63,277 nt of DNA, filler included, from Globobulimina sp. (GCA_003354225.1; 24 parts of 24 records of this genome joined end to end with filler, not necessarily neighbours in it); one strand, 5' to 3'; positions 200 to 36,887 are shown, counted from the first letter of the whole stretch. Program-made: numbers and translations. Notes: generated from the sequence alone by a model not told the origin.

Positions 200-600
200 T
201 CAATGAATGAATTCCAAACTTGTGCACTTACGAATAACTAGCTGGTTGTTGGTATCTTTTAATTTGTTCCAAATATGGTGCGCTTCGTCCCATTGCTGGT
301 ATTTTGTCAAAAATGAAAACGTTGCTGTTATTAATTGGTAGTTTGGTTTGATGTTAAATGTTTCCACTTCATTCATTAATTGCTTATATATTTGAATCGC
401 TTTATCTTCGTTTTTATAAATATTCGAATGGTTTAATATCCAAATCATATGATAATATATATATATATATACGTTGGCATCAACAATAAATTTTGACTTT
501 GCAAACTCAAATAATTGCCAACATACTTCATAACCATTCAAACTCGAACATTTCCTGATTTCTCTATGGATATCTTCTGCGGTTTGATCATCTTTTCGAT
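200..600 (-). pseudogene. PPR-like helical repeat fragment
   Basis: DKAIQIYKQLMNEVETFNIKPNYQLITATFSFLTKYQQWDEAHHIWNKL resembles PPR helix pairs; the upstream reading frame is broken. Confidence 0.45.
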
Positions 601-766
601 GTATTACAAAATTGAAAATTCCAAATTTCTTGCGATGTTTTACATGATAGAATTGGATCTACAGTGATGTGAGGCTGCGGTAAATGATATCCATTGTGCT
701 GAATGCCGTTTGATAATCATATAAACAAACTGGAATTACCTGAATTAAGGCGCCATACCGCCAATA

Positions 767-834
767 TCCCACGCCAGGATTTGAACCTGGATTCTTGCAT
801 AAAAGCAGTGCTCTTCTAATTGAGCTACGTGAGA
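767..834 (-). ncRNA. tRNA-like element without a canonical anticodon loop (copy 1)
   Basis: TCTCACG TA GCTC AATTAGAA GAGC A CTGCT-TTTA-TGCAA GAAT CCAGG TTCAAAT CCTGG CGTGGGA: 7-bp acceptor stem, D-stem, T-arm/B-box; anticodon arm is only 14 nt. Confidence 0.75.
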
Positions 835-1263
835 TTTATGCACCAGCAAATCGCCAACAACAAAATCAATATGTTTTGTTGGTATATAGATATAAAAGCT
901 AATGCTGAGGTGTTCGATAACATCAGTACAAAACAAAAAAACCTTTTCAAACAGCAAAAAAAATCAGTACTTATCGGAGACCCCTAATAAAACTATTTTA
1001 CTGGCAATTGCAATGCTGTTCATCTTTTCTAGTATGATTTGGATCACAGGTTGGGCTTAATTTACTTGTACCAGGAGTATAACAATTGGCAGCACACCAA
1101 CTATGTGAGACAACTCGTATGTTAATTGATTTACATGGTACTGTTGAAGCAGTGGTTGGTGATGCAGGGTTTCGATTTCATTTTTTGCACAAGCCGTGTT
1201 TGCCATTCTTACAGAGAACAGAAGAAAGAAAAATGAGTTGATGTAAGTTAATGATAAAAATTA

Positions 1264-2543
1264 GTGGAAAACCTGCTCGTCACGATTGGCAATTTTGTAG
1301 CAAGCAAAGAGTCAAAGGACTTTCGGGCATTCATTGCTCATTATTCTTTGGACCAAATCGAAGCCAAACTAGTCGAGGAAGGAATTACCATCAAGTTCTT
1401 GTTAGATACATCAGCGACACAACTCGATACAATCGCTGCGTCATTGGGAATCAATGCCATCCAACAAATTAAATTCAAAAAAGCTGTTCTAGCAATACAA
1501 CAAACTAAATATCCCAATAAGAGCCATCCGATTATTGATGTACCACTGCCAACAAACAACAACAACAAACGAAAGAATCCATATTCAAATCAAAACACAC
1601 CAAATCCAAAAAAACAAAAAACGTTAACCAATATTTCAGAAATATTCAATGTTCCAAATTCAAATGACACATTACCTGTAAATTCAAATTCAAATTCAAA
1701 TCAAGAAACATCATTTTTAATTGACAATCACAAACGGCATTGTTTGGGTAATGATAAAAATCAACAATATCCGCCTCATGCTCCTCAAGCAAAACATGAT
1801 TTACATAGAAAAGAAGAGCAACAATTGATTGAATGCAAATATTGTGAGTATGGATGTAATATTCAATCAATATCTGAACATGAATTATATTGTGGTTCGC
1901 GGACTGATGATTGTCCAAAATGCCGACAAAGAGATACTTTGCGAAATATAAAACTTTGTAAACATCAATGTCATAATACAAATGTTTCCAAACTCACTTC
2001 AAATCCAGAAACGTTTGATTTTTCCGACCAAAAAATAAATTATGAATTACAAAATGAATATACTCCAAAATTTGAAAGGCAATTATATGATTTGCAGAGA
2101 ATTTTACATGATCGATTTGTAAAGAATAATAAAGAGATTTCCTCTCATTTTGAGGAATATGATGCTTTCGGACTTAAACAGAAAAAAAATAGCAATGGAA
2201 ATATATCAAATATTCGGACATTGAGAAGTTATAATATGTCAAATCATAATTCGAATGAAACAACATCTGAATATAAAGCAAATACTAACAATAAATCCAA
2301 AAATGAGTCTATGAAAGAAGATGGAGAGAAATATAAGAAAATATTGACTTTATTGGAGACGATATTAAGGAATATAAAGGAGCAGCCACTTAATGATAAA
2401 TATCGGCGGTTGAAATGTAATAAAGAAAAATTAAAAACGTTTATATTTAGCTACAGTCCATGTTGTAAGTTTTTGTTTTTATGTAATTTTAAATTTGTTA
2501 GAATTGATGGCGATGATTTTTATGAAATGAGAGATGTTAATAT
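1264..2543 (+). CDS. SAM-like + TRAF/XAF1-type zinc finger + PUB domain protein (3' truncated)
   Basis: SAM-like N-terminus (KLVEEGITIKFLL...LGINAIQQIKFKKAV); CKYC..EHELYCGSRTDDCPKC; PUB-like LLETILRNIKEQPLNDKYRRLK; true start uncertain. Confidence 0.6.
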
Positions 2544-2643
2544 NNNNNNNNNNNNNNNNNNNNNNNNNNNNNNNNNNNNNNNNNNNNTTAATTAATTAAN
2601 NNNNNNNNNNNNNNNNNNNNNNNNNNNNNNNNNNNNNNNNNNN
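2544..2643. other. Artificial contig-joining linker (N44-TTAATTAATTAA-N44); 23 identical copies across the window
   Basis: Identical 100-bp spacer with a six-frame stop, recurring every ~2.64 kb; the flanking contigs are sorted by length. Confidence 0.99.
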
Positions 2644-3814
2644 GGGCGTCTATATGAGCATTGCAAAAGGCATTGAAAGTGTCGCCAAAAGTTTGAGAGG
2701 CGGCGTCTTTATGAATCTATAAAAATAATTTTGTTTTTCTTTTGTTTGTGGCCTTTTCGTGTGTATTTTGTTTTGTTTTTTGTTTTTTGCTTTTGTGATG
2801 ATATGTACTTATTATTATTATGTAATATATAAACCAGAGGAGAAATATGCCTTAATTATGATTTAACAGTGTATAATTAATTGATTTCTATGGTCGCAAA
2901 CGCTATCCTTGCACAGATCTTTTTTTCTTCGTTTCGTTAAATTAAAGTACGAAACGGAGCGCAAAGAAAGGAACATAAGAAATGGATCCGTGCAACAACA
3001 TAAATGTCATAAATCATATTTAATTATTAATACAAACATATAGTAATATTATTAATTATTATTGTGGTACGCAATGAGGTCTTTATGGTATTAATACCCG
3101 ATATTCTGCCCGTGGTAACTCCTAAAATTAAGCCACAAAATATTCCAAAACATAATGCTAAAATTCATGCAATATGAGGTGGTGCGAAGGTGTTAAATCG
3201 TTAAAACGCCATCAAAATCATATAAAATAATTTTGATTTTCTTTATATTTACACTTAAATCGATGTCGCGATCCCGATCCCGATCCTGTGATGTTATCGA
3301 CAAATATCTCTTTTATAGCAATACAATTCTTTTATAGCATAACACAGCGTATTCTTATCCAAATTGCGTGAATTATGCTTATACGTAAATGCAATAACTG
3401 ATATTTCGACGCATAATAAAATCAAGAAATAGGAGACATAGTCGGTGACATTGTCAATGACTGTCGATAACAATGTGTTTGGTCTCTTTTCTCGCATTGA
3501 TATGGCTATAATGTGTTGCAATAAATTTATTAAATTTATACCATTGATAAATTTATCATTGACAGTAATAAACTGTTTAATTTTTTCAAATTTTTAATAT
3601 TTACAATATTTATGCCATTATTCAAATTTTTGGTTTTATTCCATACATATTTGCGGATATCAATTAATGTCAAAATTACTAGCAATGCGCCAATAATACA
3701 AAACAAATATGAATATAAACAATATCCGTTGTGCTGAATGCAATGATATAACATAAAAATAAAAAGCTTTCTTTTTCATTCCATAAAATCCAAATCCATT
3801 GCACGATGATGTGC

Positions 3815-3880
3815 TGTCGCCACAGGATTTGAACCTGTATCTTCTGGATTAATCCAGTGCTCTGCTTGAGCTATGCGACC
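3815..3880 (-). ncRNA. tRNA-like element with a 4-nt loop in place of the anticodon loop (copy 2)
   Basis: GGTCGCA TA GCTC AAGCA GAGC A CTGGA-TTAA-TCCAG AAGAT ACAGG TTCAAAT CCTGT GGCGACA. Confidence 0.85.
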
Positions 3881-4073
3881 ATTTCTGTTGTATTTACCAT
3901 TGCAATTTTCTATGTGGAGGTTTATTTTTCAAATGAATTATAAACCATATGGAGAGACAGTAGAGGCAATAGAGTGAGGACTATTTATTAATCCACTCTG
4001 CTGGCAAGCAATCCTCGTGACATAAGTAGACATCAAATGTAACGGTCTCGAAAAAAACTTAGTTGGACATAGT

Positions 4074-4560
4074 CTAATGATTATCTTTTAAGACATGGAT
4101 ATCACGGGATTTCAGTGTAGAAACAACAGAATTATTCACCAATCTTTTAGCTATTTTCTCAGAAACGGGTAATGATTTAATTTTATTTTTATTATGTTTG
4201 TTATTGAAGCAATTATATGCTGCTTTTTTAGTGAAAATATCAGCGATACGGATACCATGATTTGTATCACGTTTACATTTTTGAAGACGAACAGATATTT
4301 TATAATCAGTATACAAATAATTAATGCAAGAATGAATTTGTTTGACATATTTTATCAGGACATAATCATACGTTGTTTGTATTTTTGCCATCCATAATAA
4401 TGCATTAATATTATCAGAGATTATATAAATAAATCGGAATTTTTCCAAGAGATCAGGTGGAAATTTCATAATTTGTTGAATTACAGTTAAAATTCCTATT
4501 AATTCCACTATATTAACATCGTATGCATAACCAACAGCCATTAAGTCTTTGTGTATAGGA
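4074..4560 (-). mobile_element. Retrotransposon-type RNase H fragment (5' truncated, non-LTR-like)
   Basis: VELIGI / IYIISDNINAL / HGIRIADIFTKKAA match the RNase HI E-D-D motifs; the first Asp (DGS) motif is missing and the WVxGH motif is degenerate. Confidence 0.65.
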
Positions 4561-4794
4561 ATGACATTATATTAATGTTGTAAATGCTTGAAATGAACAA
4601 AGATTATGTTATGCTGACAATGCACGTATGCAATGTCATCATCATATTCATTCCAATCCCAATCCCAATAATATTCTTTCTTTGTTTGTATTTGGTGGCT
4701 GCTTATACCGCTTATTACCACCAAATACATTTTCCCATTAATTTTTCATTCCCAATTAATATCAATTAATTTTTGTTTCGTTTTTTTCGTTTGA

Positions 4795-4859
4795 GATCGC
4801 CTCATGATTTGAACCTGAATCTCTGGACGCATCCAGTGCTCTGCTTGAGCGAGGCGACA
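4795..4859 (-). ncRNA. tRNA-like element with a 4-nt loop in place of the anticodon loop (copy 3)
   Basis: TGTCGCC TC GCTC AAGCA GAGC A CTGGA-TGCG-TCCAG AGAT TCAGG TTCAAAT CATGA GGCGATC, followed by an A-rich tract on the minus strand. Confidence 0.8.
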
Positions 4860-5286
4860 GTATGGAATCCATTTTATTGTATAGCTTCATGATAATATCG
4901 CCTTTATGTCCATTGTGTTTGTTTAGGCGAAATCTCTGCCAATTGCCACTTCGTAATGAAACCAGACATTTTGTAGCTTACAGTGAGTGACTGGGAGTTA
5001 TTAGACGAACGTATTGTTTTAAAAAAAAAAACTGTGTTAGTCACTTATTTGGATCTATTATATCGATCCACTACAGCCGAAAATGAAAAATGTTTCTACA
5101 TAATGTTCCTTTTCCATCCCACAGTAACTATGCTCTGCAAACTGCAACAAAATACAACAGAGTGACTAAGACTAATCGCGAATATANNNNNNNNNNNNNN
5201 NNNNNNNNNNNNNNNNNNNNNNNNNNNNNNTTAATTAATTAANNNNNNNNNNNNNNNNNNNNNNNNNNNNNNNNNNNNNNNNNNNN

Positions 5287-7829
5287 ATTTAATAATTTCG
5301 CTGTCATCGTCCCACGAACTATTCGCAATATGGCCCGCATACAGCCCGCCCCCTTCAAATACCAATGCTATTTGTGTTGGCCGTAAGTAACTAATCACGC
5401 CATTTATGTCCGCAAACGTATCGACTGTGCACGTTACTAAACTGCCATCATTGGTACACCTATAACTCGGATCTATTGGCACAGAAAATGTTGGTTTGTG
5501 TGTTGGCGACTTTGAGGGAGCTAAAGTCGTTGGTGACGTAGGTGATGCAGAGGGGTTTAATGTGGTTGGTTCCTTTGTAGTGGGTGACATTGTTGGTGTT
5601 GGTGTTGGTGCATTTGTAGTCATTGTGGGTGACAGTGTTGGTCGAACTGTTGGATTTAAACTGGTCGCTGTTGGATATTTGCTAGGCTGTAATGTGGTGG
5701 TTGGTACTGTCGGCATAGTCGGCGATTTTGTCGGATGCGATGTGCCAACAACCACAATTGTTCCAGATGAGGATCCCGTGGCAGCTGAAAGTATTTTATA
5801 TATTGCAGTTATTGAATATATTTCAAATATATATACCTGAATAACCACCATAATCATCAGTATTAATGTCCATTTCTTTCAATGCATTATTAACTTCCCC
5901 CCAATTTGTGTCATCTGGCAGCAATTTGGTAGTTTCTTGGGGTATGGTTATTAATGATGCAGTATAACTAAATATTATCGTCAATATTAATACCACAGTA
6001 ATTAAAAAAATACCCAACCCTTTCTTCATTAAAATGAAATATAAATCTGTACAATCACCAAATTGCGTTTCTGCTTCAAACGAGCCATCATTACTTTTAT
6101 TTTTACGTTTTGACAATTTCTTAATGGATTGTCGTCTTTTATCGATCATTGATTGTCCCATTTTTGAATTATCCAATCCATATAAATATGATTTACGTTT
6201 TTGTGCATCCGGAACAGCAAAAAAAATTGATTTTTGATTGTAACGCGTGTTCGCATTATGTGTATACAGTCGATTGCCAGACATTACAGTCATCACTGAT
6301 TTGCGTCGCCACATTGACGACATTCGCGAGGATAAACGTCGAGGATCGTTAACATTGTTCGCCTCATTCTCCTGTGGCAATGGAACAGCGACAGCCAACC
6401 ATTTGGTACATTTATCGATATGAAAGTCATATTCCATGGAGCTCATAACAAACCAAACATAGCTTTGCAGCACGACAGGAAACCAGGTCATGACTAGAAT
6501 AAAATTGGTCAATACCAAGCTACCCAAAAACCAGCCAAACTGAGGTAGCGGATTAATAGTCGACAAACATAGACTAAAAAACGAAAATGCCGTCGTAAAC
6601 GAAGTAACAAACATCGCCGATCCGGCTTCTCTGTACGCAAAGGCTAAGCGTAAATGATTTGGTATCATTTCCCCATTGATTGACTCTAACGGAGCTCGAC
6701 GATACGATGAGATAAACACGCAAATGTCATCCGAGCCGATGCCCAATATCACCCAGATCGAGACCATATTGATTAAGTTAAATGATTGGCCCCATACCAT
6801 TTCATAGACTGCAAAGCATGGCACAAAGGAACAACATACGCCTAACAGACCAAATGTGGTGATGTAAAATGAGCGACAATACATATATAATACGAGATAA
6901 ATGATTATCAATGACGTGATTGCCAGGTTCAGATCTTGTGCTAAATAGTAATACAACTCATCGTTTAATATAACACCGCGTGAATCAGATACCGCTACGC
7001 CAATATATGCGCGGATGGAGGAATCCAATTGGTCAAAGAAGTTGAGTTTGTAGGATGCCACCCAATTATACAAATCTTCAGACGATTCAAAGCCATGCTG
7101 GTAACCGAACGGATATATGGCTGCTAGATATTTGCTGGACACGTTGGCGAAATTGAAGCCGAAGTCGAAAAAGCCAGTGATGCCACCAATATCATTATAG
7201 GTTCGTATCGTTTCTTCAATATCGCCATTTTTCAATGTCAACTCATCTCCGGCACCGTTAAAGACATAGTTTCCTAAAATAATTTGCGGATAAATGTAAT
7301 TTAAAAATGATCCTGGCGATGCTTCTAAATATAAACTAGTGTATTGTCTGCCAAATATTGTCTTTATACTTGTATCCGTTTCCTCGTAAATTATCGAATG
7401 ATTACGATATCCGTTGTATTGTTTGATGCCCTTTTCAATTAAATGTACCTTCTCCAATAACTCTGCTGTTAATATGTTATTTGTTTGCTTTGAATAATAA
7501 AATACAGTCAATGCGTCTGCAGCGATGGCGCGATAATAATAATCTGTCTGTGAGTATAGTATATATCCATATTTCTCAGCATATGCCAACCGCCTTCTCG
7601 TTGCATGTGCCTCTGTATCGGCATTGGTCGATGTTGACGATCCATATCCCAATGAGTCATAACTGGTCTTTGTGGCCAACACATACTGATTAAAATCATT
7701 TGATATCTCGCTATTTATAACCTTAAAGTCACTGAAATTAAAGGACAAACAAATCGGATACAATGCCGTGTAAACACCAAATAAAATCATAATTATTAAT
7801 ATGCTCCAAAAGCAGGCGCAACAGCCGTA
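5287..7829 (-). CDS. Patched/Dispatched-family RND transporter with sterol-sensing domain (partial at both ends; intron 5785-5836)
   Basis: VILGIGSDDICVF (GxxxDD) and AYREAGSAMFVTSFTT; multiple TM helices; a 52-nt GT-AG phase-1 intron joins ORF 5823-7790 to the Pro/Thr-rich ORF 5231-5857. Confidence 0.85.
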
Positions 7830-8450
7830 NNNNNNNNNNNNNNNNNNNNNNNNNNNNNNNNNNNNNNNNNNNNTTAATTAATTAANNNNNNNNNNNNNNN
7901 NNNNNNNNNNNNNNNNNNNNNNNNNNNNNTTCTGAACTGTTCAGAAATGATGTTTAAAAATTCCGTACTTTTCCGCAAAAAATTGATGATTTTTGAATTC
8001 TAGATCGAAAACTCTCATTCTAGATCATGACACCACATTTTCTCTGATCATGTCAAAATATTAAAAGTTTGAATGATTTAGATGCTATATACTGAAATTT
8101 TAAATTGACTGATGTTTTGGCATTCTTGATTGGAGCCACGACGGTCTTTGCAGTCACAGTTGTGTGTCTGTTCAAAACACACACAATTTATGAATCCGAC
8201 CTCCGAAACGAATTGACTAATTTTGCAGTGCAAATCATTATTTTGCTCATATTTGTGACGAGTATTCGATGCAGACAATGTGGATATGACCACGAAAAGT
8301 ATGAAAAATCAAGAAAATGTCAGGAAAAGTGCGACCATCGATCTATGATCCCAATTCCGTCGATATGGATTCGAATCTGTTCGGAAAAAGAAGAACAAAA
8401 GTGGATTATTCACTCGGTTTCGATTTGAATCAAAAAACGGAAGTGTGTGT

Positions 8451-10277
8451 GTGTGTGTGTGATGTCAGTGCTGTATGTGCTTGTGTCTCGATCCACTCAT
8501 TTGTTGGGCGTTTTTTTATGCTTTTGGTTGTTACTTTTGTGCAATTTTGTTGTTAAAATTGATGGGTTATTTTTATATATATTTCCGAGACGTGTTTTTG
8601 TGAATCCAAATGAAAAAGAGAGAAACTTAAGTAAAAGCCAGCAACCCAGATTAAGAACCAACACATGCACTCTTTTTTTGCTATTCACATTTTGATACAC
8701 AAATACAAAAGGAGAAATTAAGTCTGTCATTGTGCAATAATTTATGGAAACGCATTACAAATAATTTATTAAAATAAATGCTCTGTCTCAATGTACTATT
8801 TTACAGTGCCATTCAGCTGCACTCAATGCGCTTGATTCAATGGAAATTAATCGATTATGGCTGGTGCGAATATATCAATGCATCAGATGGGAACAAACGC
8901 ATTTTATTACAATCATTACATGGATACAATGTGGTATACTGCGCCTGAAATGCATATTTACTCTATGAACGTACAGAATGTGTTTAGTGCAAAGACTGAT
9001 GTTTGTGGCTTGGCTGTGAGTGTTTTGGACATTCCGAACAGGGGAAATATTGGTGTCTTTCAAGTCGTGAATGAAGAAAATGAGAATTTGGAGGCGAGTC
9101 TGCATGTCTAAAAAAGAAAGGGAAAATGCGAAACTAATCCGAAATAAGAAACAGAAATGAATTGGAATGGGCACATTTGAATGGTACCGGTTTATTGTTC
9201 AATAAAAGTGATAAATTTGGAGGTATAATCCCTGGTCAGATACTATGAGCGCAACAGAGTATCATTCATTCCAAATGCCAAACAATGTACGATTATTTTG
9301 CATGATTCGAGCCATGGTTTGTGGTGCCAATATATGATAGAATGGTTGATGAGTGTGTGCTGCGTCATTTCTGCATTTTGTGTGTGCTTTATGTGCTTGT
9401 GTCTCCACTCATTTGTTGGGTATTTTTTCATGCTTTTGGTTATTCATTAAAATGGATGGGTTACTTTTATTTATATTAATATTTCCGAGACGTGTTTTTG
9501 TGAACCAAATGAAAAAGAGAGAAACTTAAGTAAAAGCTCAGACAAAAACCGTGGGGATTGGACAACTTGTTTTTTTTTACGCTTTTACTTCAGTTATATA
9601 CTCTTTCATGATTAAACTTTTTTGACCAACCTACCTCGTCAAATACATGAATACAAGGACAATACACTCATAGAACCAAATCAACGTACAAACACATGCA
9701 TTCTTCATTAATTGCAAAGTCAACGCATATCCAGATTAAAAAAGGAGGCAAAAAAAAATACACAGCTGACGAAAAAAACCAAGAAAAAATACACTGCAGA
9801 CAAAAAATTGAAAAAAACGCACTGAAAATGATCACATGCGTGAGATCAGCATATTAGTACAAAATGTTAATGATTTGAAAAATATGTTTATCCAATATTG
9901 CAATACACAAGTTCACAAGTTTCTGAGTCTAAAACTGATTAATATGTCAAGATCCATCAGACTCGAACAAAGAACATTATCTCTCAATCATCTATAAAAC
10001 CATCGGTGCCTGAAGGCAACGTAATGTTTATGAGTGTGTGTTGTGTCGGTAATTTATGCATTTTTGTGACATTTTGTGTGTGTGATGTCAGTGCTTTATG
10101 TGCTTGTGTCTCCACTCATTTGCTGGGCATTTTTTCATGCTTTTCGTTGTTACTTTTATGTAATTTTGTTGTTTCAATCGATGGGTTATTTTTATTTATA
10201 TTTAATTTCCGAGATGTGTTTTTAAGAACCAAAAGAAAAGAGAGAGACTTAAGTAAAAGCTCAAACAAAAACCGTGG
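8451..10277 (+). repeat. Three diverged direct copies of a ~190-200-bp repeat (about 8451-8638, 9378-9555, 10076-10277)
   Basis: Shared core TATGTGCTTGTGTCTC..CACTCATTTG..GATGGGTTA..TTTCCGAGA..AAGAGAGA.ACTTAAGTAAAAGC. Confidence 0.9.
8857..9111 (+). pseudogene. Degenerate protein kinase fragment (subdomains VIII-IX)
   Basis: DTMWYTAPEM...FSAKTDVCGLAVSVLDI resembles GTxxYMAPE...YSxKSDVWSLGV; the other subdomains are not seen. Confidence 0.55.
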
Positions 10278-10572
10278 TAGAATACTATAGGATAGAACCA
10301 AGTCAACCAACACATGCACTGTTCTTTCGATATTGAAATAATTATTACCGTTTATCATTTTGTGTTTTGTAAAATATTGTTTGAGTTTTAGATACATATC
10401 ACACTGCACACTCGCCTGGGATTCCTTTTGTTTTGACTGAAATTTATATTTGCTATCGTTGGTTGTAGTTTTNNNNNNNNNNNNNNNNNNNNNNNNNNNN
10501 NNNNNNNNNNNNNNNNTTAATTAATTAANNNNNNNNNNNNNNNNNNNNNNNNNNNNNNNNNNNNNNNNNNNN

Positions 10573-10639
10573 CGCCGAGCTGAAGTAGAGGACTGGATAG
10601 ATATATCCAGACGATTCAGGTTCAACGCCTGAGGCGCCC
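10573..10639 (+). ncRNA. tRNA-like element (copy 4, 5' end cut by the contig start)
   Basis: CGCC GA GCTG AAGTA GAGG A CTGGA-TAGATATA-TCCAG ACGAT TCAGG TTCAACG CCTGA GGCGCCC; same CTGGA/TCCAG arm as copies 2 and 3. Confidence 0.75.
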
Positions 10640-11103
10640 CCAAAACCTATCCAAATATTGATTGGATTAAATGAATTGGAAATTTGGTATTTAATAAAAT
10701 AAATGAATTAATTTATTGAGAAAGGAATTGATAAACTGAATTGGAACAATCTACTTGAGCTCGGCGATGCTTTCATGTTCCTCTTTGTGAATATCCATTG
10801 TTCTCATGTTCCTGTATAGGTTTGACAAGTTTGCGAGTTTACGGCAATTTTTACACAAACGTTGTTTTCTTGTACCTGAGAAACGTTCGTCATGCTGTAC
10901 AGTAAAGTAAAAAAAAAACGAACATGTTAGATCTCTTCAATCTTAGTGTTTTGAAGATCTGTCCGTCTCTCGGATAGGTACTGTATTCTGTATACAAATA
11001 TTGGCAGACTAGCTAATATTTTTCGAATTAAGAATTTCGAGGTGCTGTGTAATACAAAAAATAACGCTTTCTTCAGTTTGCTCATTATTTAATACGTAAG
11101 AAA

Positions 11104-12987
11104 ATGGCACAGGAAATTCTTCATCACTTGCCACATATTGATCATTCTTTTAACAAGGTTTCAAATGAAATTATAATGCCTTCCATTGCAACAGATTTAT
11201 TTGCATGGAAAACAAAGTTAAAATATGTACATCGCCTCTACTGTAATTAATAATTAATAAAAATTAACAGTTCCTATCAACAATCAATACAAATGTTTGC
11301 TTATATTCCAATAACAATCGCTATTTTATATACTCAAATCTGCGCAGTTATAATGCTATCATACTGTTGTTTTGGACGTTGTAAATATATGTTTTCTTAT
11401 GGAAAAGCATCAAATGGAAAGGAAATTGAAAATTATCATAATTTATCGCTTTTATATAATAAGCAACAACATCCAGATCAAAGTATTGAATTAACTGAAT
11501 ATTCGAGATTCACTCGATGTGCATTCTCTTTTCTTGTTTTAATCTCACTTATTTTCGCCATTGTGTATGGAACAGCATTCAACGAGTGATTCTTATGATG
11601 ATTATGAAATAATAATTGACGATGCAACACAAATTACTTCATTATATATACCGGAGGCGCAATTTCAATGTAAATTAATATTAAATACACCAACGGCAGA
11701 ACCTATTTATGCGAATATCACCGCATTAAATAATACATTGAGTGCATCCCAGGCATATATTGATGCGTTTTTAACCACAGCATCGAATGTTCCACCATGG
11801 GATGTGATAAACACACAAATAACACCATACAGAGAATTTGTAATCATATTTCCGGTCATTGCATTGATTGTATTTGGCCTATTAAATATATTGAATTATT
11901 TATGTTTGTCACATGATTATTTGAATAAACAAATATGTTTTTGTTGTTGCTCATTGTCAGTCATATATCTGGGCGCATTTATATTTATTGTGGCCTGCAT
12001 TCAGTTTGCAGTCAGTGTATTGGTGGCAGATGGTTGTAATGAGCCAGATAGCTCAATATGGCAAGCTGTGGAGGTGTACAATGATGATAAAACTACAAAA
12101 GAAGTAATTAAATATTATTTATATTGTATTGATAATGCGACAATAACTAATCCATTATATCCTGGTATCATAAATCAATATTAATGCAAACAGATATTTA
12201 TTTTTCAATTTTAATTTCAACTGAAATCGAAAAATAAGATGTTTGAAATGTACATTGCATAATTTGCATTAATTTATGATACTGCGACTTTACAGAATTC
12301 AATGCGTCATATTATTCATTAACTGCATTAAATCAAAGTATATATACATTGGTCACAACAAATATATCTCGGGAATTGGGGATTGTAATGGAAGCAAATG
12401 CATTGTATTTCGATTATTATGAATCATTGCTATTAATGGATGAAATTAATGATACGGTACAATGCAAAAATATTTATAATTACAAAGAAAATATGATTCA
12501 TGAATTATGTGTGAATGGCTTGGATTTTTGGATTATATATTATTTGTCACAAATTGCGTTCATTGTACTTATAGTGATTAGAAGTTGGTTAATTTGCACA
12601 AAGAAAAGTAAAAATAATAACAATAGTAATAAGGAACAAATGATGCGGAATAAATATGGTGGCACAAATAATGGATCTATGGATGACGGTGAATCCGAAC
12701 GTAAAAATGAAAATATATTTGTAAATATTAAATATGGTGATAGTATAACACGATATAATTTAAATATAAATAAAACTGTATATGATTTGATGGAAATGAT
12801 TGAAAATACAGAAGATTGTGAGACTGCACAACAAAAATTAATGTATAATGGAGATGAATTACTCCCCAATAAGATCATTGGTAATACGATTAAAAATGAA
12901 CAAATAATTGATTTAGTTATTTTAGATGTTACATTAAGTAATGAATATGAATCTGAACAAGATGATGATTTAGATTTGCCTCAATGA
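11104..12987 (+). CDS. Tweety (TTYH)-family membrane protein with a C-terminal ubiquitin-like domain (introns 11217-11270 and 12165-12295; 1-nt frameshift near 11578)
   Basis: LHHLPHID..VSN, SYQQSI, VADGCNEPD, YYLYC..NP and C...LCVNGL match Tweety motifs; Ubl fold TVYDLMEMIE..QQKLMYNGDEL. Confidence 0.8.
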
Positions 12988-13455
12988 CTATTCATGCCTG
13001 ATATGGATCATATTGTACATTTGTAATTGTACTTTACATGGTTAAAATCTTAAATCTGTACATTCTCGTATTGTTTGTAAGCCACATATTTAATTAACGA
13101 TATATTCCACAAGATNNNNNNNNNNNNNNNNNNNNNNNNNNNNNNNNNNNNNNNNNNNNTTAATTAATTAANNNNNNNNNNNNNNNNNNNNNNNNNNNNN
13201 NNNNNNNNNNNNNNNTTTTTCAATAACATTCAAACCCATGCGCCACCTGTATGTGCATGCATGCATCCCCAAACTGTCATCGTCAGTTAGCAGTGGGCAT
13301 AAATCATTGCTACTTTAATTCAAAATGCCCATAATCCGCCCATTCTCCGCCCCATCGAATTTTAATATTCTGCTAACTGCAAATCTAAGCCTTGACATCA
13401 CATTAAACAGTGACCGCACCAACTTTTTGTACATAAACAAGCAACCCTTAATCAG

Positions 13456-15645
13456 TGCATATGATGATGACAACGAATATAATGAGATTCAATCGTTTGA
13501 CTCCTCCGCACGTCGTAGACTAAGATCATGTCATTGGAATCATTGTTGGTGGGGACGTTGCCATAAACATCATTATCACTGTAACCCCACCTCACCGCCC
13601 AAAAACAACGCATATTGGAATAAAAAGTACCAACGGAAAGGAAGATTCATCGCTTTCTTCCCCGGCTATCGTCAATATACTTACGCTCAATGTTCGCATC
13701 ATTGCCGTGTCCATTACGGAGGTCTGGCGTCCATTGCATCGGCAGTAGAACAGCAGGAAGTTGCTGCAGTATGCAAAGATATATTGGAACAACCCACAGC
13801 TTCACCCACACAAAATTATGCCGGCAATTGGCGAGGCTCTGCGTGTTATATTGGCTTGCAACGACCCTTCGCACTGTGGGATGATCAAAAAAAGGTCGAT
13901 AAAGGTATTGAAAATTGGAGCCCAGGTACGCTATATTCAAATTTTCATTGGCTGTCTGTACATATTTGTACACAAAAGGCCAACCGGATAATGCTGGCAA
14001 GAAAGAGAATTGCGGTGAAATATGGCCATTTAAAAACGGTGTCTGGAACGACATAGCATGCGATCGTCGCAAATCATGTATTTGTGAGGATGCCAGAGGT
14101 GTTTTCTCCGGCAAATATATTGCGGTGCAAGCGATGAGAGATTACCATTCCGCGGAACAACATTGCCAGGAAACATATGGTACGACATTGGCGACCATTG
14201 TTAGTGACGAAGAAAATAATCAGGTTTTGGAAGCATGTAAGAAAATTATTATTGTCGGCACAACTGCATCGTGCTGGATTGGGTTACAACGACCGTTTTA
14301 TCGGTGGAACGATGGAAGTGACGCGGAAGAAAAGTATACAAATTGGAAAACAGGAGAGCCAAATAATAAAAACGAAAAATGTTCAGAATTGTATACTATT
14401 CATGAAGGGAAATGGAATGATTTGCCGTGTAGGTTTTATAGGTATTTTGTGTGCAATGCGCTGTCGTCAATTGAGAGGATGGGTTATCATGGCAGGGAGG
14501 AATTGATTGCGAAACGGTTACATAGACACAGAATAAAATGGGAACATTCACAAGCTAGGGTTCATAGGGAAAAACTTAGTAAAATGTTTTTTTCACAAAT
14601 ACGAGAGTTGCGAGCTCAAATGGCTAAAAGTAAGCGAACACATACTAATAAGTATAGGGAGGAGTTAAGGAAACATTTGTTTAATAATTTGTATCCAGGT
14701 GTGCCATATAGTAGCTTTGGTAAAAGTAGTCAAATCATAATGAATAGTGCGAGATTATTTGGTGGCTCACGCTTAGCAAAACAAGCGAAACATAGAAGGG
14801 GAATATTAAAACATAAAAAAGAAAATAAACAGAGTGATATTGCATATTCAAAGGATAAAATACAAAGACGTAAACAGGATATGTATGTAAGGAGAATGGT
14901 TGAGTTTGATGATGAAGTTACATTGTTTGGTAATGATGGCATTGAAAATGATGAAATAATGGACGATGAATATGGTGATACATCGGCGAGGAAGTGTATA
15001 ATGGTAAGTGTTATGAATGAGATGTATGAGATATGTGTTGGTGAAAATTATATTGATATTAAGAGATATATTAAAAAAATAAAAGAGAAAAAAGAAAGAA
15101 TGGTTGACTTTGAAGCTGAGTCTATGGCTGAAAATAATATTATGTCGGATCAAAATTATAGTGTCGAGGTTATGAGTTTTATTGATTTTGAAAACTGGAA
15201 ATATGAAAAGATATTTGCAATGGAACTCGAGTATGGAAATGAAAGTGGTATAAATATAATGAAACATGAAGTAAATAATTATTTGACACATTATGTGAAA
15301 GTGTACCAAAAGATATATGATAATGACAGTAATCATCAAATGCAGTGTTGGAGTGATATTAAACCATTTCATTTATGTATGGAAATAGATAATGATAATA
15401 TGGTTATATCCACAAAGGAATATGATGTATTTAGGGATCCTTTTATAAAATTTGCGTTTAATAATGATAAATATTGGGATGATATTATATATCATTACGG
15501 TATGGATGATAGGCAAATAGCAATGCAAAAATGTAGGAAATTTTATTCAACCAATTCGAAATTGTGTGTTTTGAAAACTGTAGATAATGTTTATAAAATG
15601 ATACTCATTCGACACAGAGATGATGATCCATCATTTTATGATTAG
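13456..15645 (+). CDS. Tandem C-type lectin domain protein (intron 13926-13978; 5' end uncertain)
   Basis: CTLD1 CYIGL..WSPGQPD..ENC..WNDIAC; CTLD2 CWIGL..WKTGEPN..C..WNDLPC. Confidence 0.85.
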
Positions 15646-22169: not shown

Positions 22170-23682
22170 ATGTCGTCATTAGGTGGATTCAAATCTTCTC
22201 GTACCAGAGCCAAGAAAGACCTTTTCAAAATCAAAGGTGATGTCTCTCGTATTGTTGATCAACGACCAAACATTTCTGCAATCCGTGCTGATAACTTAGG
22301 TCCACTTGAAACAGAAGTCGGTGATCTTTTTACAAAATTACAGGATAGGTTGTCTAGATTCGATGCTGCTACTGACAACGTCAACAAATGCTGCATTGAT
22401 TCCAAAGATGAAGATGCACAGGAAGAACTTCAAAACGAAATAGACGAAGAGCATGATGCTATCACAGTATTTAGAGACGATTTACTTATTCTTCGTCGTT
22501 TTCATGCTTCTATTCAACAACGAGCAGCCTCACTGCAACCTAGAGTGCCTCCACCGCCTGTAAAAGCTGAACAGGATCCAGCTCAGTTGGTTCAACTTGT
22601 AACCGCTGCAGTCGTTACTGCAATGGCACAACTACCACCTGCTCCCGTTCACGCTCCAGCTCCTGCCGCTCCTGCTGCTGCACAAGCTCCATTACATGTC
22701 AAGTTACCTAAATTTGAGATGCAAAAATTCTCTGGCAAAATTCTCAAATGGAAAGGCTTTTGGGATGAGTTCTCATCAGCAGTTCATAATGTAGCAGCAA
22801 TGTCGGCCATTAACAAGTTTCACTACTTGCGTGCTCAATTGGATGGAGACGCCCTTAAAACGGTAGCTGGCCTTCAATTTACTGCAGAAAACTACCAAGT
22901 TGCTGTTGATTTACTGACTGGTCGTTTCGGCAAAAATCAGTCAATTATTGAGGCACATTACACTGCGTTAGAAGATTTGCCTACTGCGGGAAGTAGTCAT
23001 ATCAAACTGCGTATCTTTTTCGACACTGTGGAGCAACATTTGCGCTCACTCGAGAGCCTCGGTGAAAATATTAATCTTAATCTTTTGGTTAATATAATCA
23101 AACGGAAGCTTCCACATGACGTTTTGACGCAGATCGAACGACTGAAACCTCATGCTGAGCCCTGGACTATGGTACTTTTGCGACAGTATCTAAAGCAAGA
23201 TTTAGAACTTCGTGAAACCATAAATCCAATCGACAAAAGTGACGATAAAACGTCACCAACAAAAGGCTCCGGTCCGCGCTCCAGGACTGACTTTCCTTCG
23301 GCTGACAAACCCAAATCTGTACCACCTCGACCTACTGCTGAAGCTCTTCTTAGTCGTGAACGTAACCGAATGCTGCCTGTCAGTCCATGCAAGTTTTGCG
23401 ACAAAACTGGTCATTATTATGACGACTGTCGGAAAGTCACGACTCTTGAAGCCCGACAAAAGATAATTAAAGAACTTAAGTGTTGCTTTAATTGTCTACA
23501 ATCAGGACATGTCACAAAAGAATGTCCATCGATACGAAAATGTTTCCATTGTGCTGCAGTTGGACATCATCAATCACTTTGCCCAAAGAAGTTTGGACGG
23601 AAACCTGATTCCAAACCTCCCGACAAAAGTGGCCCACCCATTAAAGAACCACATCATCTTAGTATCGGCGAAAAAGACCCTG
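22170..23682 (+). mobile_element. BEL/Pao LTR retrotransposon Gag (DUF1759 domain + three CCHC knuckles), 3' truncated
   Basis: KLPKFEMQKFSG..WKGFWDEF..KFHYLRAQLDGDA; CKFCDKTGHYYDDC, CFNCLQSGHVTKEC, CFHCAAVGHHQSLC. Confidence 0.92.
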
Positions 23683-24259: not shown

Positions 24260-25444
24260 TTAACTCAAAGATAAGTCAGCAACATCCTCAACAGACTGAT
24301 ACTTTGTTTTATATATACGACGATAAAAATAAATCCGTTCGCAAATTAATGCAAATATGGCAACAATACATAAGATAATTAGTACTCGCCATATTATCAA
24401 AGTATTGGATGAATTATTATCGTTGCTTGAATGTGATACCATATCGCCAATATTTGCCCATTTTATATTAATATAACATATAATGTGTCTATCCGCGAGA
24501 TCTGGCGTGATATATGACACTTGGATGGGATTATTCTTTGTGTCTGATATCTGATATTCATATTTATTTGGATCGATTACTAAAAATGTGTCTGTATCAA
24601 CAATTAAGTCGATAATACCAATGCGTTGGCTGTCTAATTGTGTGCATTTATACATGTCCTGTTCAGAAATATCGCCTGTTTTTATATGCGACAGAAACGC
24701 AAAGTAAAGCGGAGTGAATTATATTGTTTATTATATGAGAAACATACCAATGACGTATACAGTGATCTGACACATTATAAAATATTGCTTATTTTCTGCA
24801 GCATAGGTTATTTTATGTTGACCTATTTCATATTGGTTATGATTACCAGATATAGATACGGTGATATTTGAGGTATGATTATGTAACGTTGGAATGTCCC
24901 AAAATGCAGAGATTTCAGTGCTTGATATGTCATTTGTGATAAATGCAACATATCCTCGGGATTTAATGTGGCAGTTTTCATTGTTTATTAACCAAATTAT
25001 CTCCTCTTCGTCTGGTATGGTCGTGGTGTGTAAGGAAGTGATATCACCGATGGATGTATCTATATTTTGGTAACATACAATATTTAAAGTGATTTGTGTT
25101 CCATCATTGATTGAGTTCCATGTTGATGATATTGTATCGTTTGTAAATGTTATAGGTAGCGAGTAAATATTTGTATTGTGCTCTTGTGATAATGTGAATG
25201 ATTCATCTTTGTTGTCCCAATTGTAAAAATACCATTTATTTTCAAAGATTAATAGTTGGATTACATGTGGTGTGGGTACGGAATACCAATAATTTGTACC
25301 AAATTTTGTTTCGTTTTTAGAATATTGGTACCATCCGTTGTATGTAAATGAGTCTGGTGATACATACAAATAGTTACAGTCTGTGCTATTTATGGATGAA
25401 ACCGATGAGAGGTAACACAAAATGAAAAATGTAAGAATTGCCAT
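24260..25444 (-). CDS. Type I membrane protein with a HYR-like domain (one intron at about 24660-24745)
   Basis: Signal peptide; FWDIPT..YEIGQHKITYAA..CQITVYV (HYR-like); C-terminal TM helix and short tail. Confidence 0.65.
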
Positions 25445-34346: not shown

Positions 34347-36887
34347 AATTTTGTTACAGATGTCATATCACTTTCATTCATTTTCATGTTAAATTTATGC
34401 TTGATTTCGTTATATACCTTTTCAGCCATTTCATAATCATTATATTTTTTACATCCGTTCAACAACGAAGTCCACATTTCTATGTTACTGTCATCTTTAG
34501 AATAACTTTCATATTCCAATATAAGTGTATATGCCTGCAAAATCCTACCATTTCTGGATAAACAATCAACCAAACTCGTCGACACAAAACAATCGTATCT
34601 AACATTATCTTTTTTGATTTCATTTTGCCAAATATTTATTGCCATATCCACCTCGCCACCGTTACCAAGTGCATTGATCAATAATTTAAACGTCTTACAA
34701 TGAATATTATTATTATTCGCTGCATTTTCTTTTTTGATATCGTCAAATATTTTCAGTGCATTATTAACATCGTTATTTCTCCCAAATGCGTATAACATTG
34801 AATCATAAATTGCAAGCTGTTTAATTTGAATATTGTCAAATATTTTTTTACATTCATCCAACATTCCACATTTGCCATACATATTTATTAAATGCATTTG
34901 AATCAATGGATCATTGATCATATTATTTACTTTCAATGTTTCATGAATATGCTGTCCAAGTTGTAAAATGGATGCATGAGTGCACGCTTTGAGTGCAGTG
35001 ACATAACTAACTTTATCTGGAATTAATAAATTATTCATTTCTGATAAATTCTCAAACAATTCAATACATTTTATTGCTAAATCATTGTGGATGAATGCCT
35101 GCATCATTGCATTTACACAAGCTATGTTTTTATGCTTGTTATTGATGCAATGAAATATGTGTACTGCCTCATCGATCTCTTTGCATTTTCCATAAAAATT
35201 AATTAAGGCTGAATTGATATAAATGTCATCGGTTTGACCAATAAATCTGTGGATCTCTTTGCCTTTAACTATATTCTCTGCATTAATACTCTTTGAACAT
35301 GCTTTCAACGCCAATGTATGTGATGTCTCATCATGTAACCAATCATATTTTTCATATATGCCCAGTGCTTCCTTATTGCATCCATTATTGAGAAATACAG
35401 TCATCATACAATTGATGCAAACGCAATCCTTATTTTTATTATTAATGTTATCGAATATGTATTTTGCATCCATTATTTTACCAAAATAGCCATAAAAATT
35501 GATCATTGTATTCTCAACTTGTAAGTGATGAGCATTGTGATTGATATTAATATTTTCATAAATCTGCTTTCCCGGCTGATAGTTATCCATATTTTTACAT
35601 GCATGTATCGCCAATACATGAGTTATATTATTATTTAACAGTGCAAAATCATTATATATTTGCAAGGCATGTTCATTTTTATTGTTGTTGATTAATAATT
35701 TCATAATAACAGCAACAGCAACTACATTTATTTTAGGTTTATTAATGTTGTTGAATAAATTCAATGCAATGTCTATTTTACCAAATGTTCCATAAAAATC
35801 AATCAATGCCGTTTGAATACGCATATCTTCAAATAGTAATTGTTGATTTTCTTTTATATTGTCATGAATTTGTATTCCCCTCTTCCAATTTTTGGAACAC
35901 GCTTTGATTGCCATTATATGACATTGTTTATTACAAAATGTATAAAATTTGTCATAAATATGCAATGCTTTTTCATTTTGTTGGTTGGTGATTAACATTT
36001 TCATCATTTTATAAATAAATTTATCTTTGTTATTGTCATTTGGTATTGAAGCAAATATAAATTGTGCTCTTTCTAACACATTAAAATGACAATAAAAATC
36101 AAATAAAACAGTTTTATATTTAACATTATTATTGATATCGATATTTATCTCTGAAATGATTTTATTTCCTGTTTCAAAATTATTAGTCATGATACATGCT
36201 TTAAGCGCTAATAAATGACAAATCTCATCATGCAAATGATTATATGATTGATTATGATATAAGTTTAATGCTTTTACATTTTGGCAGTTATTAAGCAATG
36301 CTTTCAACATTGATCCAATCACAACTTTATCTTTTGAATCTATTGCAATTGATTCAAATATTTTTTCCGATTTGTCAATTTGTAAATATTTGCCATATGC
36401 ATTAATCAATGCTGTTTTGATGAAAATATCTTTATTCACATTCATATTCAAAGCAATCACTGAATAAATAGTATCTAATTGTTTTATATTTTGGCATTTT
36501 GATATTAATTTTGAGCAATTTCTGGAAAAATCTTTCATTTCATAAGCCGTTTTAAATTGATAATTACTCTCATTCATCAAACACAAAATATCTATACAAT
36601 GTTGAATATTATTCATGTTCACAAAGCATTGCATCAACAAAGGATATTGAATCAAATCATTATTTTCGTTCTGTTTACATACATCATTCCATATAATACT
36701 CGCCTTTTGTGGTTCATTATAATGAATGCAAACTCTTAAAAACTTGTTAATGGTAAAATGATTTTTACCTTCATCAATTTCATTGTAAATATCAATTGCC
36801 TCATTAACAGCGTTTAATTTTTTTTTATTTCTCAAAAGATCGTTTAATAACTTTGTAGCGTCATAATTGGAAAGCTTTGATTGTTTC
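34347..36887 (-). CDS. PLS-like pentatricopeptide repeat protein with an E-domain-like C-terminus (partial)
   Basis: Repeated ALINxYGKCG..A..IF motifs and G.QIH motifs; ends LVDCLSRNGRI..A..MWTSLLNGCKKYNDYEMAE. Confidence 0.9.

Follow-up and report, generated by a model that had tools for sequence, protein, structure and literature searches.

The window analysed here is a stretch of 63,277 nt of DNA from Globobulimina sp. (GCA_003354225.1). It is made up of 24 contigs, each 2537-2543 nt long, linked by N44-TTAATTAATTAA-N44. Four tRNA-like cloverleafs of 66-69 nt lie in it, one on contig 1 (c1), two on contig 2 (c2 and c3), and one on contig 5 (c4) (Table 1). A preliminary description of the window had reported four cloverleafs without an anticodon loop on three contigs, and the four are real: none has a 7-nt anticodon loop, and the GG of the D loop is missing from all of them, as was stated. 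c3 and c4 are detected by R1, a covariance model custom-built in the present analysis. With its filters off, R1 finds no fifth copy in the whole window, the sole other match being at 25217-25260 (E 0.96). The string CAGGTTCAA occurs exactly six times in the window, in the four copies and at two sites that are not tRNA-like. In blastn comparisons among c1-c4, the matches span 54-72 nt only and the contexts are unrelated.

Table 1 Features of the window around the four cloverleafs
Feature	Position	Strand	Description
20-nt motif GCATTCAGCACAAYGGATAT	687-706	-	59 nt downstream of c1
c1	766-834	-	tRNA-like cloverleaf, the sole copy seen of its own type
83-nt repeat	907-988	.	72 nt upstream of c1; 95% identity to positions 219-301 of locus L002
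Type A unit holding c2	3777-4078	-	about 200 nt upstream, the cloverleaf, and a 37-nt tail ending ...GGATTTTATGGAATG
c2	3814-3880	-	type A cloverleaf, arm CTGGA-TTAA-TCCAG, D loop of 5 nt
Non-LTR retrotransposon ORF fragment (RNase H)	4077-4571	-	phmmer matches P0024 (E 2e-25) and P0025
Body common to types B and G	4636-4793	-	downstream of c3; A-rich linker, then WWTGG-rich sequence
c3	4794-4859	-	type B cloverleaf, arm CTGGA-TGCG-TCCAG, R1 76.2 bits
c4	10573-10640 (R1 match 10570-10640)	+	type C cloverleaf, R1 49.7 bits

The minimum-energy fold of c1 is a full cloverleaf (z -3.26), with a 7-bp acceptor stem (TCTCACG/CGTGGGA), a D loop of 8 nt without GG, and a 3-bp stem with a 6-nt loop at the anticodon position. 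It scores 45.5 bits with the Rfam tRNA model (RF00005), above the gathering score, and 68.3 bits with R1. ARAGORN calls this copy alone of the four, at 765-835(-), as 'tRNA-???' with an anticodon of 2 nt. c2 also folds into a full cloverleaf (z -4.73) and scores 41.5 bits with RF00005, above the gathering score, and 85.2 bits with R1. c3 has a single T-stem mismatch, which is present in its fold as well, and TC where the family has TA; at position 4851, most Logan contigs aligned there carry the family base. The arm of c4 is a 7-bp stem with a GATA loop, its D stem is degenerate and broken in the fold, and the first three bases of its acceptor are lost to the contig start. Its identity to four related loci (L005, L021, L085, and L089) is 90-91%. 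The loops and stems described previously need some correction. TTTA is not the loop of c1, the sequence TAGATATA given as the loop of c4 forms the stem and tetraloop above, and the common acceptor stem is shared by c2, c3, and c4, while c1 has a different one.

A second copy of the motif GCATTCAGCACAAYGGATAT lies at 3722-3741(-), 72 nt downstream of c2. The two matches in the window compare with none expected from shuffles, and none is present in 108 loci. The 83-nt repeat next to c1 is also found upstream of the L002 cloverleaf, at a distance of 92 nt.

A census with R1 over the window and related public contigs (92.5 kb in total) gives 34 copies, all of which come from one data source or closely linked ones, and therefore copy counts are not independent. 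In the unselected window alone, the density is 4 per 61 kb. Among 241 million metagenome records scanned, copies of the main types are found in one sequencing project only. The copies fall into at least eight types (A-G and that of c1), in which the acceptor, anticodon-arm, and T stems differ yet are still paired, and the unit size across the superfamily is 58-82 nt. Common to all types are a box-A region, TAGCTCAA..GAGC, and a box-B region, GGTTCAAATCC; box B is intact and box A is without the usual GG. The D loop is 5 nt long in 26 of the 34 copies, and ..TTGGCA.. appears only in type F.

Folding by minimum energy places a tetraloop on the anticodon-position arm in 22 of the 34 copies and a 7-nt loop in none. 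Likewise, a 5-bp stem and 7-nt loop followed by a variable loop is found in 0/34, indicating that the odd arm characterises the family and did not arise by random decay of normal tRNA genes. A 7-nt loop can be drawn in type D only at the cost of position 26 and the entire variable loop. Because a small variable hairpin replaces the anticodon loop, the repeats cannot decode. The family is dispersed and non-decoding, as had been proposed, with a normal arm in none of the 34 R1 copies. The decoding loop had further been called free. This is correct between types, where the arm differs, but not within a type, where it is conserved (GATA on a 7-bp stem in 5/5 copies of type C; TGCG in 4/4 copies of type B).

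The proposed covariation of the stems is borne out. In the 34-copy alignment A6, 90.4% of 679 pair cells are paired, a figure that is favoured because A6 was fitted to the model's own structure; the controls give 69.4% after shuffling (0 of 500 shuffles reach the observed value) and 33-43% when the partners are slid. Changes on both sides are seen at 17 of 21 stem pairs. Compensation also occurs within types. The first T-stem pair is A-T in c2 and T-A in L036a of the same type, and between L097 and L098 two acceptor pairs differ, each with compensation. With RF00005, c1, c2, and members of types A, D, E, and F score above the gathering threshold. ARAGORN finds no gene in six related loci. Downstream of the acceptor strand, types B, C, and G have C/T and then, in most cases, CAA rather than an encoded CCA.

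The 5' end of the cloverleaf is also that of the repeat in types B, D, E, F, and G, where pairs have about 0 nt of upstream similarity. Downstream, the similarity extends beyond the cloverleaf by up to 158 nt in types B and G and 340 nt in type E. The cloverleaf of types A and C is set 7-37 nt before the 3' end, in a unit about 220-300 nt long. Type A pairs have in common at least 148 nt before the cloverleaf and 37 nt after it. For type C, about 145 nt upstream are in common, except for L085 with 44 nt, which looks like a 5' truncation. No long conserved unit extends upstream beyond about 200 nt. The earlier statement that there is no shared SINE body therefore applies among c1-c4, where similarity ends at the cloverleaf, but not at the level of the family, where the types of c2, c3, and c4 each have the extensions given here.

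Around c2, the type A unit matches L036 for 254 nt at 94% identity, and its 3' end, at 3777, is sharp. Positions 3777 and 4078 are where Logan contigs part ways, the summed depth being 3300-14900 inside and about 11 in the flanks. The body common to types B and G matches L002 and L086 over 156-158 nt and L013, L016, and L100 over 39-47 nt, and its summed Logan depth is 260-1300. Overall, the summed Logan depth is 260-14900 over the repeats and about 11 beside them, a 100-1000x difference that is not a copy number. The tails are short tandem repeats, (GGAAT)n directly after type F and, in the remaining types, WWTGG-rich sequence. Several copies are decayed: L084 is 3'-truncated, the arm of L002b is deleted, insertions are found in L100 and L106, and stem mismatches in L013, L016, and L021a are uncompensated. 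A contig end cuts, or lies within 10 nt of, 4/34 copies. Taken as a whole, the units are short (about 70-300 nt), high-copy, and dispersed. Target-site duplications are not recognisable by eye in the flanks of 13+10 copies, which are AT-rich with imprecise 3' ends, and no poly-A tail is found on the repeats. An Rfam search at E<=1 upstream in types A and C gives no credible other small-RNA head.

Of 10 paralogue pairs, 4 have a cloverleaf that is more conserved than the homologous flanks. Most clearly, L098 and L102 have no difference in the 68 nt of the cloverleaf, arm included, compared with 71 differences in 375 nt beside it (19%; Fisher 2e-6). L005 and L089 are another pair in which the cloverleaf is conserved beyond the flanks. 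Stem covariation and a core conserved beyond its flanks exceed what a promoter alone would need; they are compatible with functional RNA genes or gene conversion as well, which counts against the SINE-like reading.

The type A unit adjoins a fragment of a non-LTR retrotransposon ORF that encodes RNase H. Among the homologues of this ORF, P0028 has RVT_1 upstream of the matched region, and P0029, P0030, and P0031 have Pfam RNase_H there; no relatives are found in prokaryote genome contigs. The ORF stops at the repeat boundary at 4078, about 170 residues before its best homologues end, and the missing C-terminal residues are absent from all of contig 2. The repeat therefore abuts a broken LINE rather than forming its 3' UTR, so that c2 as part of the 3' UTR of the upstream retroelement is ruled out. 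The RNase H fragment is a neighbour outside the repeat element. In tblastn searches, no further LINE fragment adjoins any copy. A partner LINE with a common tail was not found among sequences in which no LINE 3' end is intact and the sole adjacent LINE fragment is without its own 3' part. Among other ORFs, a GAS8/DRC4 ORF has metagenome relatives at about 70% identity and matches solved DRC4 chains at only 110-155 bits, and no relatives were found for an 835-aa ORF.

The most likely identity of the repeats is that of SINE-type mobile elements from an AT-rich eukaryote. From the sequences, we consider it probable that they form a lineage-restricted, tRNA-derived, Pol III-type SINE-like superfamily with the cloverleaf as its selected core. 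Of the two interpretations offered before, the second, a tRNA-derived retroposon, is the best fit; the proposed family is real, non-decoding, and covarying, and what did not hold is, at the family level, the missing SINE body and, within types, the free decoding loop. The cloverleaf units would be the conserved core of short interspersed repeats that behave as non-autonomous retroposons. RNA polymerase III would initiate at the internal promoter; in type D, copies end in a T run, at the position expected of a terminator. The transcript would take a tRNA-like fold, which may serve the element through stability, handling by RNase P/Z, export, or recognition by reverse transcriptase. New copies would be inserted by a LINE enzyme, with selection acting on source copies and most copies decaying afterwards. 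Against a SINE, types A and C do not have the layout with a 5' head, box A is without its usual GG, and neither recognisable target-site duplications, nor a poly-A tail, nor a partner LINE with a common tail turned up in the sequences examined.

More tentatively, the cloverleaf may be a selected RNA scaffold rather than a mere promoter relic, a non-decoding Pol III tRNA mimic that would have to pass tRNA processing and export and would present a type-specific hairpin where the anticodon loop was. The hairpin could be a handle by which partners, such as reverse transcriptases or host proteins, distinguish types. On this account, the stems would co-evolve and the arm would be fixed within a type because both are read.

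A considerably less likely explanation than the SINE-like one, and the main reading of the preliminary description, is a host family of non-decoding tRNA-mimic RNA genes. Its Pol III cloverleaf RNAs would use the tRNA processing and export machinery and display type-specific hairpins, and the decayed copies would be by-products. The stems that covary across types and the compensated changes within types are consistent with such genes, as are the identical cloverleaf and arm of L098 and L102 beside diverged sequence. Type D, 64 nt long, points the same way, with a near-perfect 7-bp acceptor stem in 8/10 copies and TTTT 0-7 nt from the 3' end in 9/10, and types D and E score 46-51 bits with the Rfam tRNA model. 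However, the copy density in the window, with the excess of Logan depth over the flanks, is far beyond that of known small-RNA gene families. The type-specific bodies and tails, the truncated and mutated copies, and the restriction of the main types to one sequencing project also argue against host genes.

It is improbable that the cloverleaf is a 3'-terminal recognition module of a LINE and its dependent elements, read by the reverse transcriptase. The 3' stem-loops of stringent LINEs and the tRNA-like ends of retroplasmids are precedents for such a module. The position of the cloverleaf near the 3' end of the unit in types A and C, the (GGAAT)n that directly follows it in type F, and the apparent 5' truncation of L085 are in line with a 3' module. 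So is the RNase H ORF that lies about 195 nt upstream of c2 and has homologues with a reverse transcriptase. However, that ORF ends early, at the boundary where the repeat abuts a broken LINE, five types begin rather than end with the cloverleaf, and no copy has another LINE fragment beside it. Independent decay of tRNA pseudogenes, or an assembly artefact that deletes loop bases, would explain the uncompensated mismatches of some copies but can be set aside almost entirely, since an identical odd arm recurs in several copies of each type on different contigs with different flanks, no copy has a normal arm, and Logan, an independent assembly of the reads, has no indel in two of the loops among the 12 of 65 indel entries listed.

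If the SINE-like interpretation is true, the superfamily belongs to a poorly known eukaryotic lineage and keeps an entire tRNA fold by compensatory change across at least eight types, beyond the promoter boxes, with the decoding loop swapped for a type-specific hairpin. It would then offer a natural experiment to find out what in a tRNA is read by the processing, export, or retrotransposition machinery. With Rfam scores of up to 51 bits, the units are expected to be miscalled as tRNA genes or pseudogenes, and the repeats break assemblies of the Globobulimina sp. genome. Therefore, they should be masked in annotation.

Compared with decoding tRNA genes, the cloverleaf arms are present, but the 7-nt loop (U33, purine 37) on a 5-bp anticodon stem is lacking, as is G18-G19 in all four window copies. 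The tRNA-like structures of MALAT1 and NEAT1 are treated in PMC12941219. A reduced, non-decoding anticodon arm is also a property of mascRNA-type structures, in which the acceptor and T arms suffice in principle for RNase P/Z; those of MALAT1 and NEAT1 are single-copy ends of long Pol II transcripts. The family cloverleaf resembles these structures in its arm. It differs in that its copies are very numerous and scattered and that no long host transcript is seen.

Helenus TRIMs are non-autonomous LTR elements with a tRNA-like sequence within their LTRs (PMC10886601). They likewise carry a non-functional tRNA-like box A/B in a non-autonomous retroelement, not always at the 5' end. Unlike in Helenus, no LTR pair surrounds any copy here. 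A Helenus-like layout was rejected, no direct repeat larger than the cloverleaf being present around the window copies or in the first six loci; c2 and c3, similarly oriented and at a distance of 980 nt, have unrelated flanks. SINE heads or tRNA-like repeats in which a tetraloop replaces the anticodon loop did not turn up in searches of the main text of papers, though they may already be published.

tRNA-derived SINEs have a layout of head, body, and tail, as outlined in PMC5786205. The present repeats differ from them in the short or odd hairpin that takes the place of the anticodon arm in every type, in the short D loop without GG of most copies, and in the position of the cloverleaf in types A and C. 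In addition, covariation of the stems is seen both within types and from one type to another, no part is better conserved than the cloverleaf, and target-site duplications and a partner LINE were not found in the copies examined. Like tRNA-derived SINEs, the repeats are short, high-copy, and dispersed, with a tRNA-related region that contains box A and box B and at which five types start, and with type-specific bodies, simple-repeat tails, subfamilies, and decayed copies.

None of the four tRNA-like cloverleafs of the window (c1-c4) folds with a 7-nt anticodon loop (4/4 copies), in accordance with the preliminary description. c1 and c2 fold into full cloverleafs, and ARAGORN calls c1 alone among the four. 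The window is not continuous genome; it consists of 24 separate contigs of 2537-2543 nt, joined by linkers N44-TTAATTAATTAA-N44. With filters off, a covariance model from ten copies adds no fifth copy there. An exact 20-nt motif, GCATTCAGCACAAYGGATAT, sits within ~35 nt of similar sequence near c1 and c2, and recurs neither elsewhere in the window nor among the 108 loci (L-numbers) from public contigs.

Cloverleafs of the window, types of the family, and other sequence features of the window (positions are those of the window)
Feature	Members	Position	Strand	Characteristics
c1		766-834	-	Rfam tRNA model above threshold (45.5 bits); ARAGORN tRNA with two-base anticodon; fold z -3.26; anticodon arm 3 bp, 6-nt loop
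c2		3814-3880	-	Rfam tRNA model above threshold (41.5 bits); fold z -4.73; anticodon arm 5-bp stem, tetraloop
c3		4794-4859	-	Fold with T-stem mismatch; anticodon arm 5-bp stem, tetraloop
c4		10573-10640	+	D stem broken; copy truncated by start of contig; anticodon arm 7-bp stem, GATA
Type A	c2, L036a, L101			Loop TTAA or TCAA
Type B	c3, L013, L016, L100			Loop TGCG
Type C	c4, L005, L021a, L085, L089			7-bp stem, GATA loop
Type D	ten copies			Acceptor GTGATGA/TCATCAC
Type E	L097, L098, L102			6-bp stem, ATTT loop
Type F	L104, L105, L108			Normal D loop with GG; 8-bp stem, 9-nt loop
Type G	L002a, L086, L088, L095, L002b			13-15-nt loops in three; L095 4-bp stem, 5-nt loop; L002b arm deleted
Type c1	c1 only			3-bp stem, 6-nt loop
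GCATTCAGCACAAYGGATAT		687-706; 3722-3741	-	59 nt downstream of c1; 72 nt downstream of c2
RNase H domain		4077-4571	-	Adjoins type A repeat
Direct repeat x3		8452-8638; 9384-9554; 10075-10260		Contig 4; ~170-190 nt, 79-86% identical
Gag-like ORF		22170-23682	+	DUF1759 domain, CCHC zinc knuckle
PPR-repeat proteins		34347-36835; 40466-42168	-; +	Long
Open frame		50222-52726	+	835 aa, no Pfam family

The preliminary description had proposed a covariance-model search beyond the window. Such a search yields many more copies, and 34 distinct copies from window, metagenome and MAG contigs were aligned. A pattern scan of metagenome contigs gives 37 loci, 30 of which are ordinary tRNAs with 7-nt loops on unrelated contigs; another, L018, has an odd 11-nt loop. 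The true members lie on six short contigs, all from one sequencing project, which carry three extra, unselected copies. In two scans of prokaryote genome contigs, matches are confined to small, AT-rich contigs from the bin of a single Gammaproteobacteria MAG; these contigs are probably eukaryotic carry-over. The covariance model matches 24 of 150 candidates scored in this MAG, 21 on contigs of 0.5-2.4 kb and three on large contigs; the latter three are presumably the bacterium's own tRNAs. The metagenome, MAG and window sources may share the same or closely linked samples, and therefore the copies are not independent of the window.

At least eight types can be distinguished among the aligned copies. 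All types have in common TAGCTCAA..GAGC in the box A region and GGTTCAAATCC in the box B region. The minimum-energy fold has a tetraloop arm in 22/34 copies and a 7-nt loop in 0/34; in type D, a 7-nt loop can be drawn only by sacrificing position 26 plus the variable loop. The D loop is 5 nt long in 26/34 copies. In L002, two copies lie in inverted orientation, at 392-467 (+) and 1395-1452 (-), enclosed by inverted repeats of ~110 nt (106-221 versus 1777-1883, 86% identity); together they may constitute a foldback or composite element of larger size.

In the alignment, standard pairs occupy 90.4% of 679 pair cells, compared with 69.4% after shuffling (observed value reached in 0/500) and 33-43% when partners are slid. 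Pairing is 98.8% in the T stem, 96.2% in the D stem, and 82.7% in the acceptor stem, and a 13-copy set behaves alike. Both sides change at 17/21 pairs, but the alignment is fitted to the model and the bulk of the covariation lies between types, so this alone could reflect descent from different tRNAs. Such separate descent is argued against by the derived 5-nt D loop common to types, by the absence of a normal arm, and by compensated changes inside types. In particular, the first T-stem pair is A-T in c2 and T-A in L036a (type A), and L097 and L098 (type E) have two differing acceptor pairs, each of them compensated. The compensatory stem changes claimed in the preliminary description are borne out between and within types.

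Differences in the cloverleaf and in the flanks were counted for ten paralogue pairs with common flanks. The cloverleaf is significantly better conserved in four of them: L098/L102 (0/68 versus 71/375 differences, Fisher 2e-6), L005/L089 (2/71 versus 73/395, 2e-4), L021a/L089 (7e-3), and L013/L100 (0.014). In the remaining six pairs, mostly closer ones, the difference is not significant. On this comparison, the cloverleaf is the conserved core of the repeat; either source-copy selection or gene conversion between copies could account for its conservation.

Similarity had been said to end at the cloverleaf boundary. This holds among c1-c4 but not family-wide, as pairwise analysis finds common flanks within types. 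For types B, D, E, F, and G, similarity begins at base 1 of the cloverleaf and extends downstream, reaching as far as 158 nt in B and G and 340 nt in E. In type A, it covers at least 148 nt on the upstream side and 37 nt on the downstream side; in type C, it covers ~145 nt upstream (only 44 nt in L085) and 7 nt downstream. TTTT lies 0-7 nt from the 3' end in 9/10 type D copies, and family copies carry simple-repeat tails. Upstream of five of the ten type D copies (L090, L092, L093, L094, and L096) are 100-380 nt of tandem repeats, whose ~45-nt unit is a GC-rich hairpin (GGCGGCGAAGCCGCCGC) within TATTTATTATGGTAT-like sequence; this AT-rich motif also makes up the tail that follows the type C copy of L021.

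Logan contigs from four runs of one study were aligned at 80% likeness to contig 2, which carries c2 and c3. The summed depth, which is not copy number, is ~11 in unique sequence, 3300-14900 at 3749-4088, and 260-1300 at 4599-4853, yet it does show that related sequence is very abundant. At 3777 and 4078, Logan contigs have loose ends that delimit the repeat.

We favor, as somewhat better than an even prospect, a tRNA-derived, putative Pol III-type, SINE-like superfamily, lineage-restricted, whose core, kept by selection, would be the whole cloverleaf and whose anticodon arm would have become a type-specific hairpin. This is the best-supported account; it predicts transcription, processing, and retroposition, while inspection by eye of the flanks of 13 + 10 copies revealed no recognizable target-site duplications and no partner LINE was found. 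Damaged copies show truncations, deletions, insertions, and mismatches, and 4/34 copies are at a contig end. The main rival, a family of functional genes for tRNA-mimic RNAs accompanied by many dead copies, is compatible with the SINE-like reading and rather unlikely.

A cloverleaf that serves as a LINE 3'-terminal recognition module would suit types A, C, and F; it is improbable and has lost its sole direct support, the placement of c2 in the 3' UTR of an RNase H element. Among the relatives of the RNase H ORF, a 1297-aa protein has RVT_1 upstream of the matched region, and three others have Pfam RNase_H within it. The two best homologues run ~170 residues further, with a cysteine-rich tail that is absent throughout contig 2, and the ORF ends at the repeat boundary. 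Therefore, the 3'-UTR placement is rejected and the type A repeat borders a broken LINE; beside the remaining family copies there is no LINE fragment. It is very improbable that normal tRNA genes decayed independently or that an assembly artefact is at work.

The window has 34.0% G+C and long ORFs under standard stop codons (43 of at least 150 aa in 61 kb), with the eukaryotic domains PUB, Patched/sterol-sensing, Tweety, C-type lectin, DUF1759 gag, PPR, dynamin, and GAS8; we can say only that its source is an AT-rich eukaryote. The GAS8/DRC4 ORF has metagenome relatives ~70% identical and matches solved DRC4 chains at only 110-155 bits. The gag-like ORF probably belongs to an LTR retrotransposon of Bel/Pao type, and the two PPR proteins hint at a PPR-rich genome. 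For the 835-aa frame, the 8000 word-sharing candidates of similar length (459-1462 residues) scored from a 5.8-billion-protein collection include no relative at E<=0.001. The direct repeat of contig 4 is unrelated to the cloverleafs.

Other shortened tRNA-like sequences occur elsewhere. Many Bacillota and Oscillospiraceae MAG contigs (L058, L060-L062, L065-L070, L073-L075, L078) carry a conserved one whose anticodon arm is shortened (..GAGC GTTGGTTTTCAAAGGTGTC GGTTCAAATCC..); that of L058 (3250-3314) scores 37 bits with Rfam tRNA and lies ~450 nt upstream of the RNase P RNA gene (3760-4124). In tRNA-like sequences of 20 phage-like viral contigs (L038-L057), the D stem to T-loop GG spacing is 19-23 nt versus ~26 nt normally, and L040 has a single short-spaced sequence amid three normal tRNA genes.

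Full-text literature searches return no description of tRNA-like repeats in which a tetraloop replaces the anticodon loop, which is no proof of absence. Among known systems, SINEs are described as laid out in head, body, and tail (PMC5786205). Non-autonomous LTR elements may contain tRNA-like sequences (PMC10886601), and MALAT1 and NEAT1 are reported to use tRNA processing (PMC12941219).
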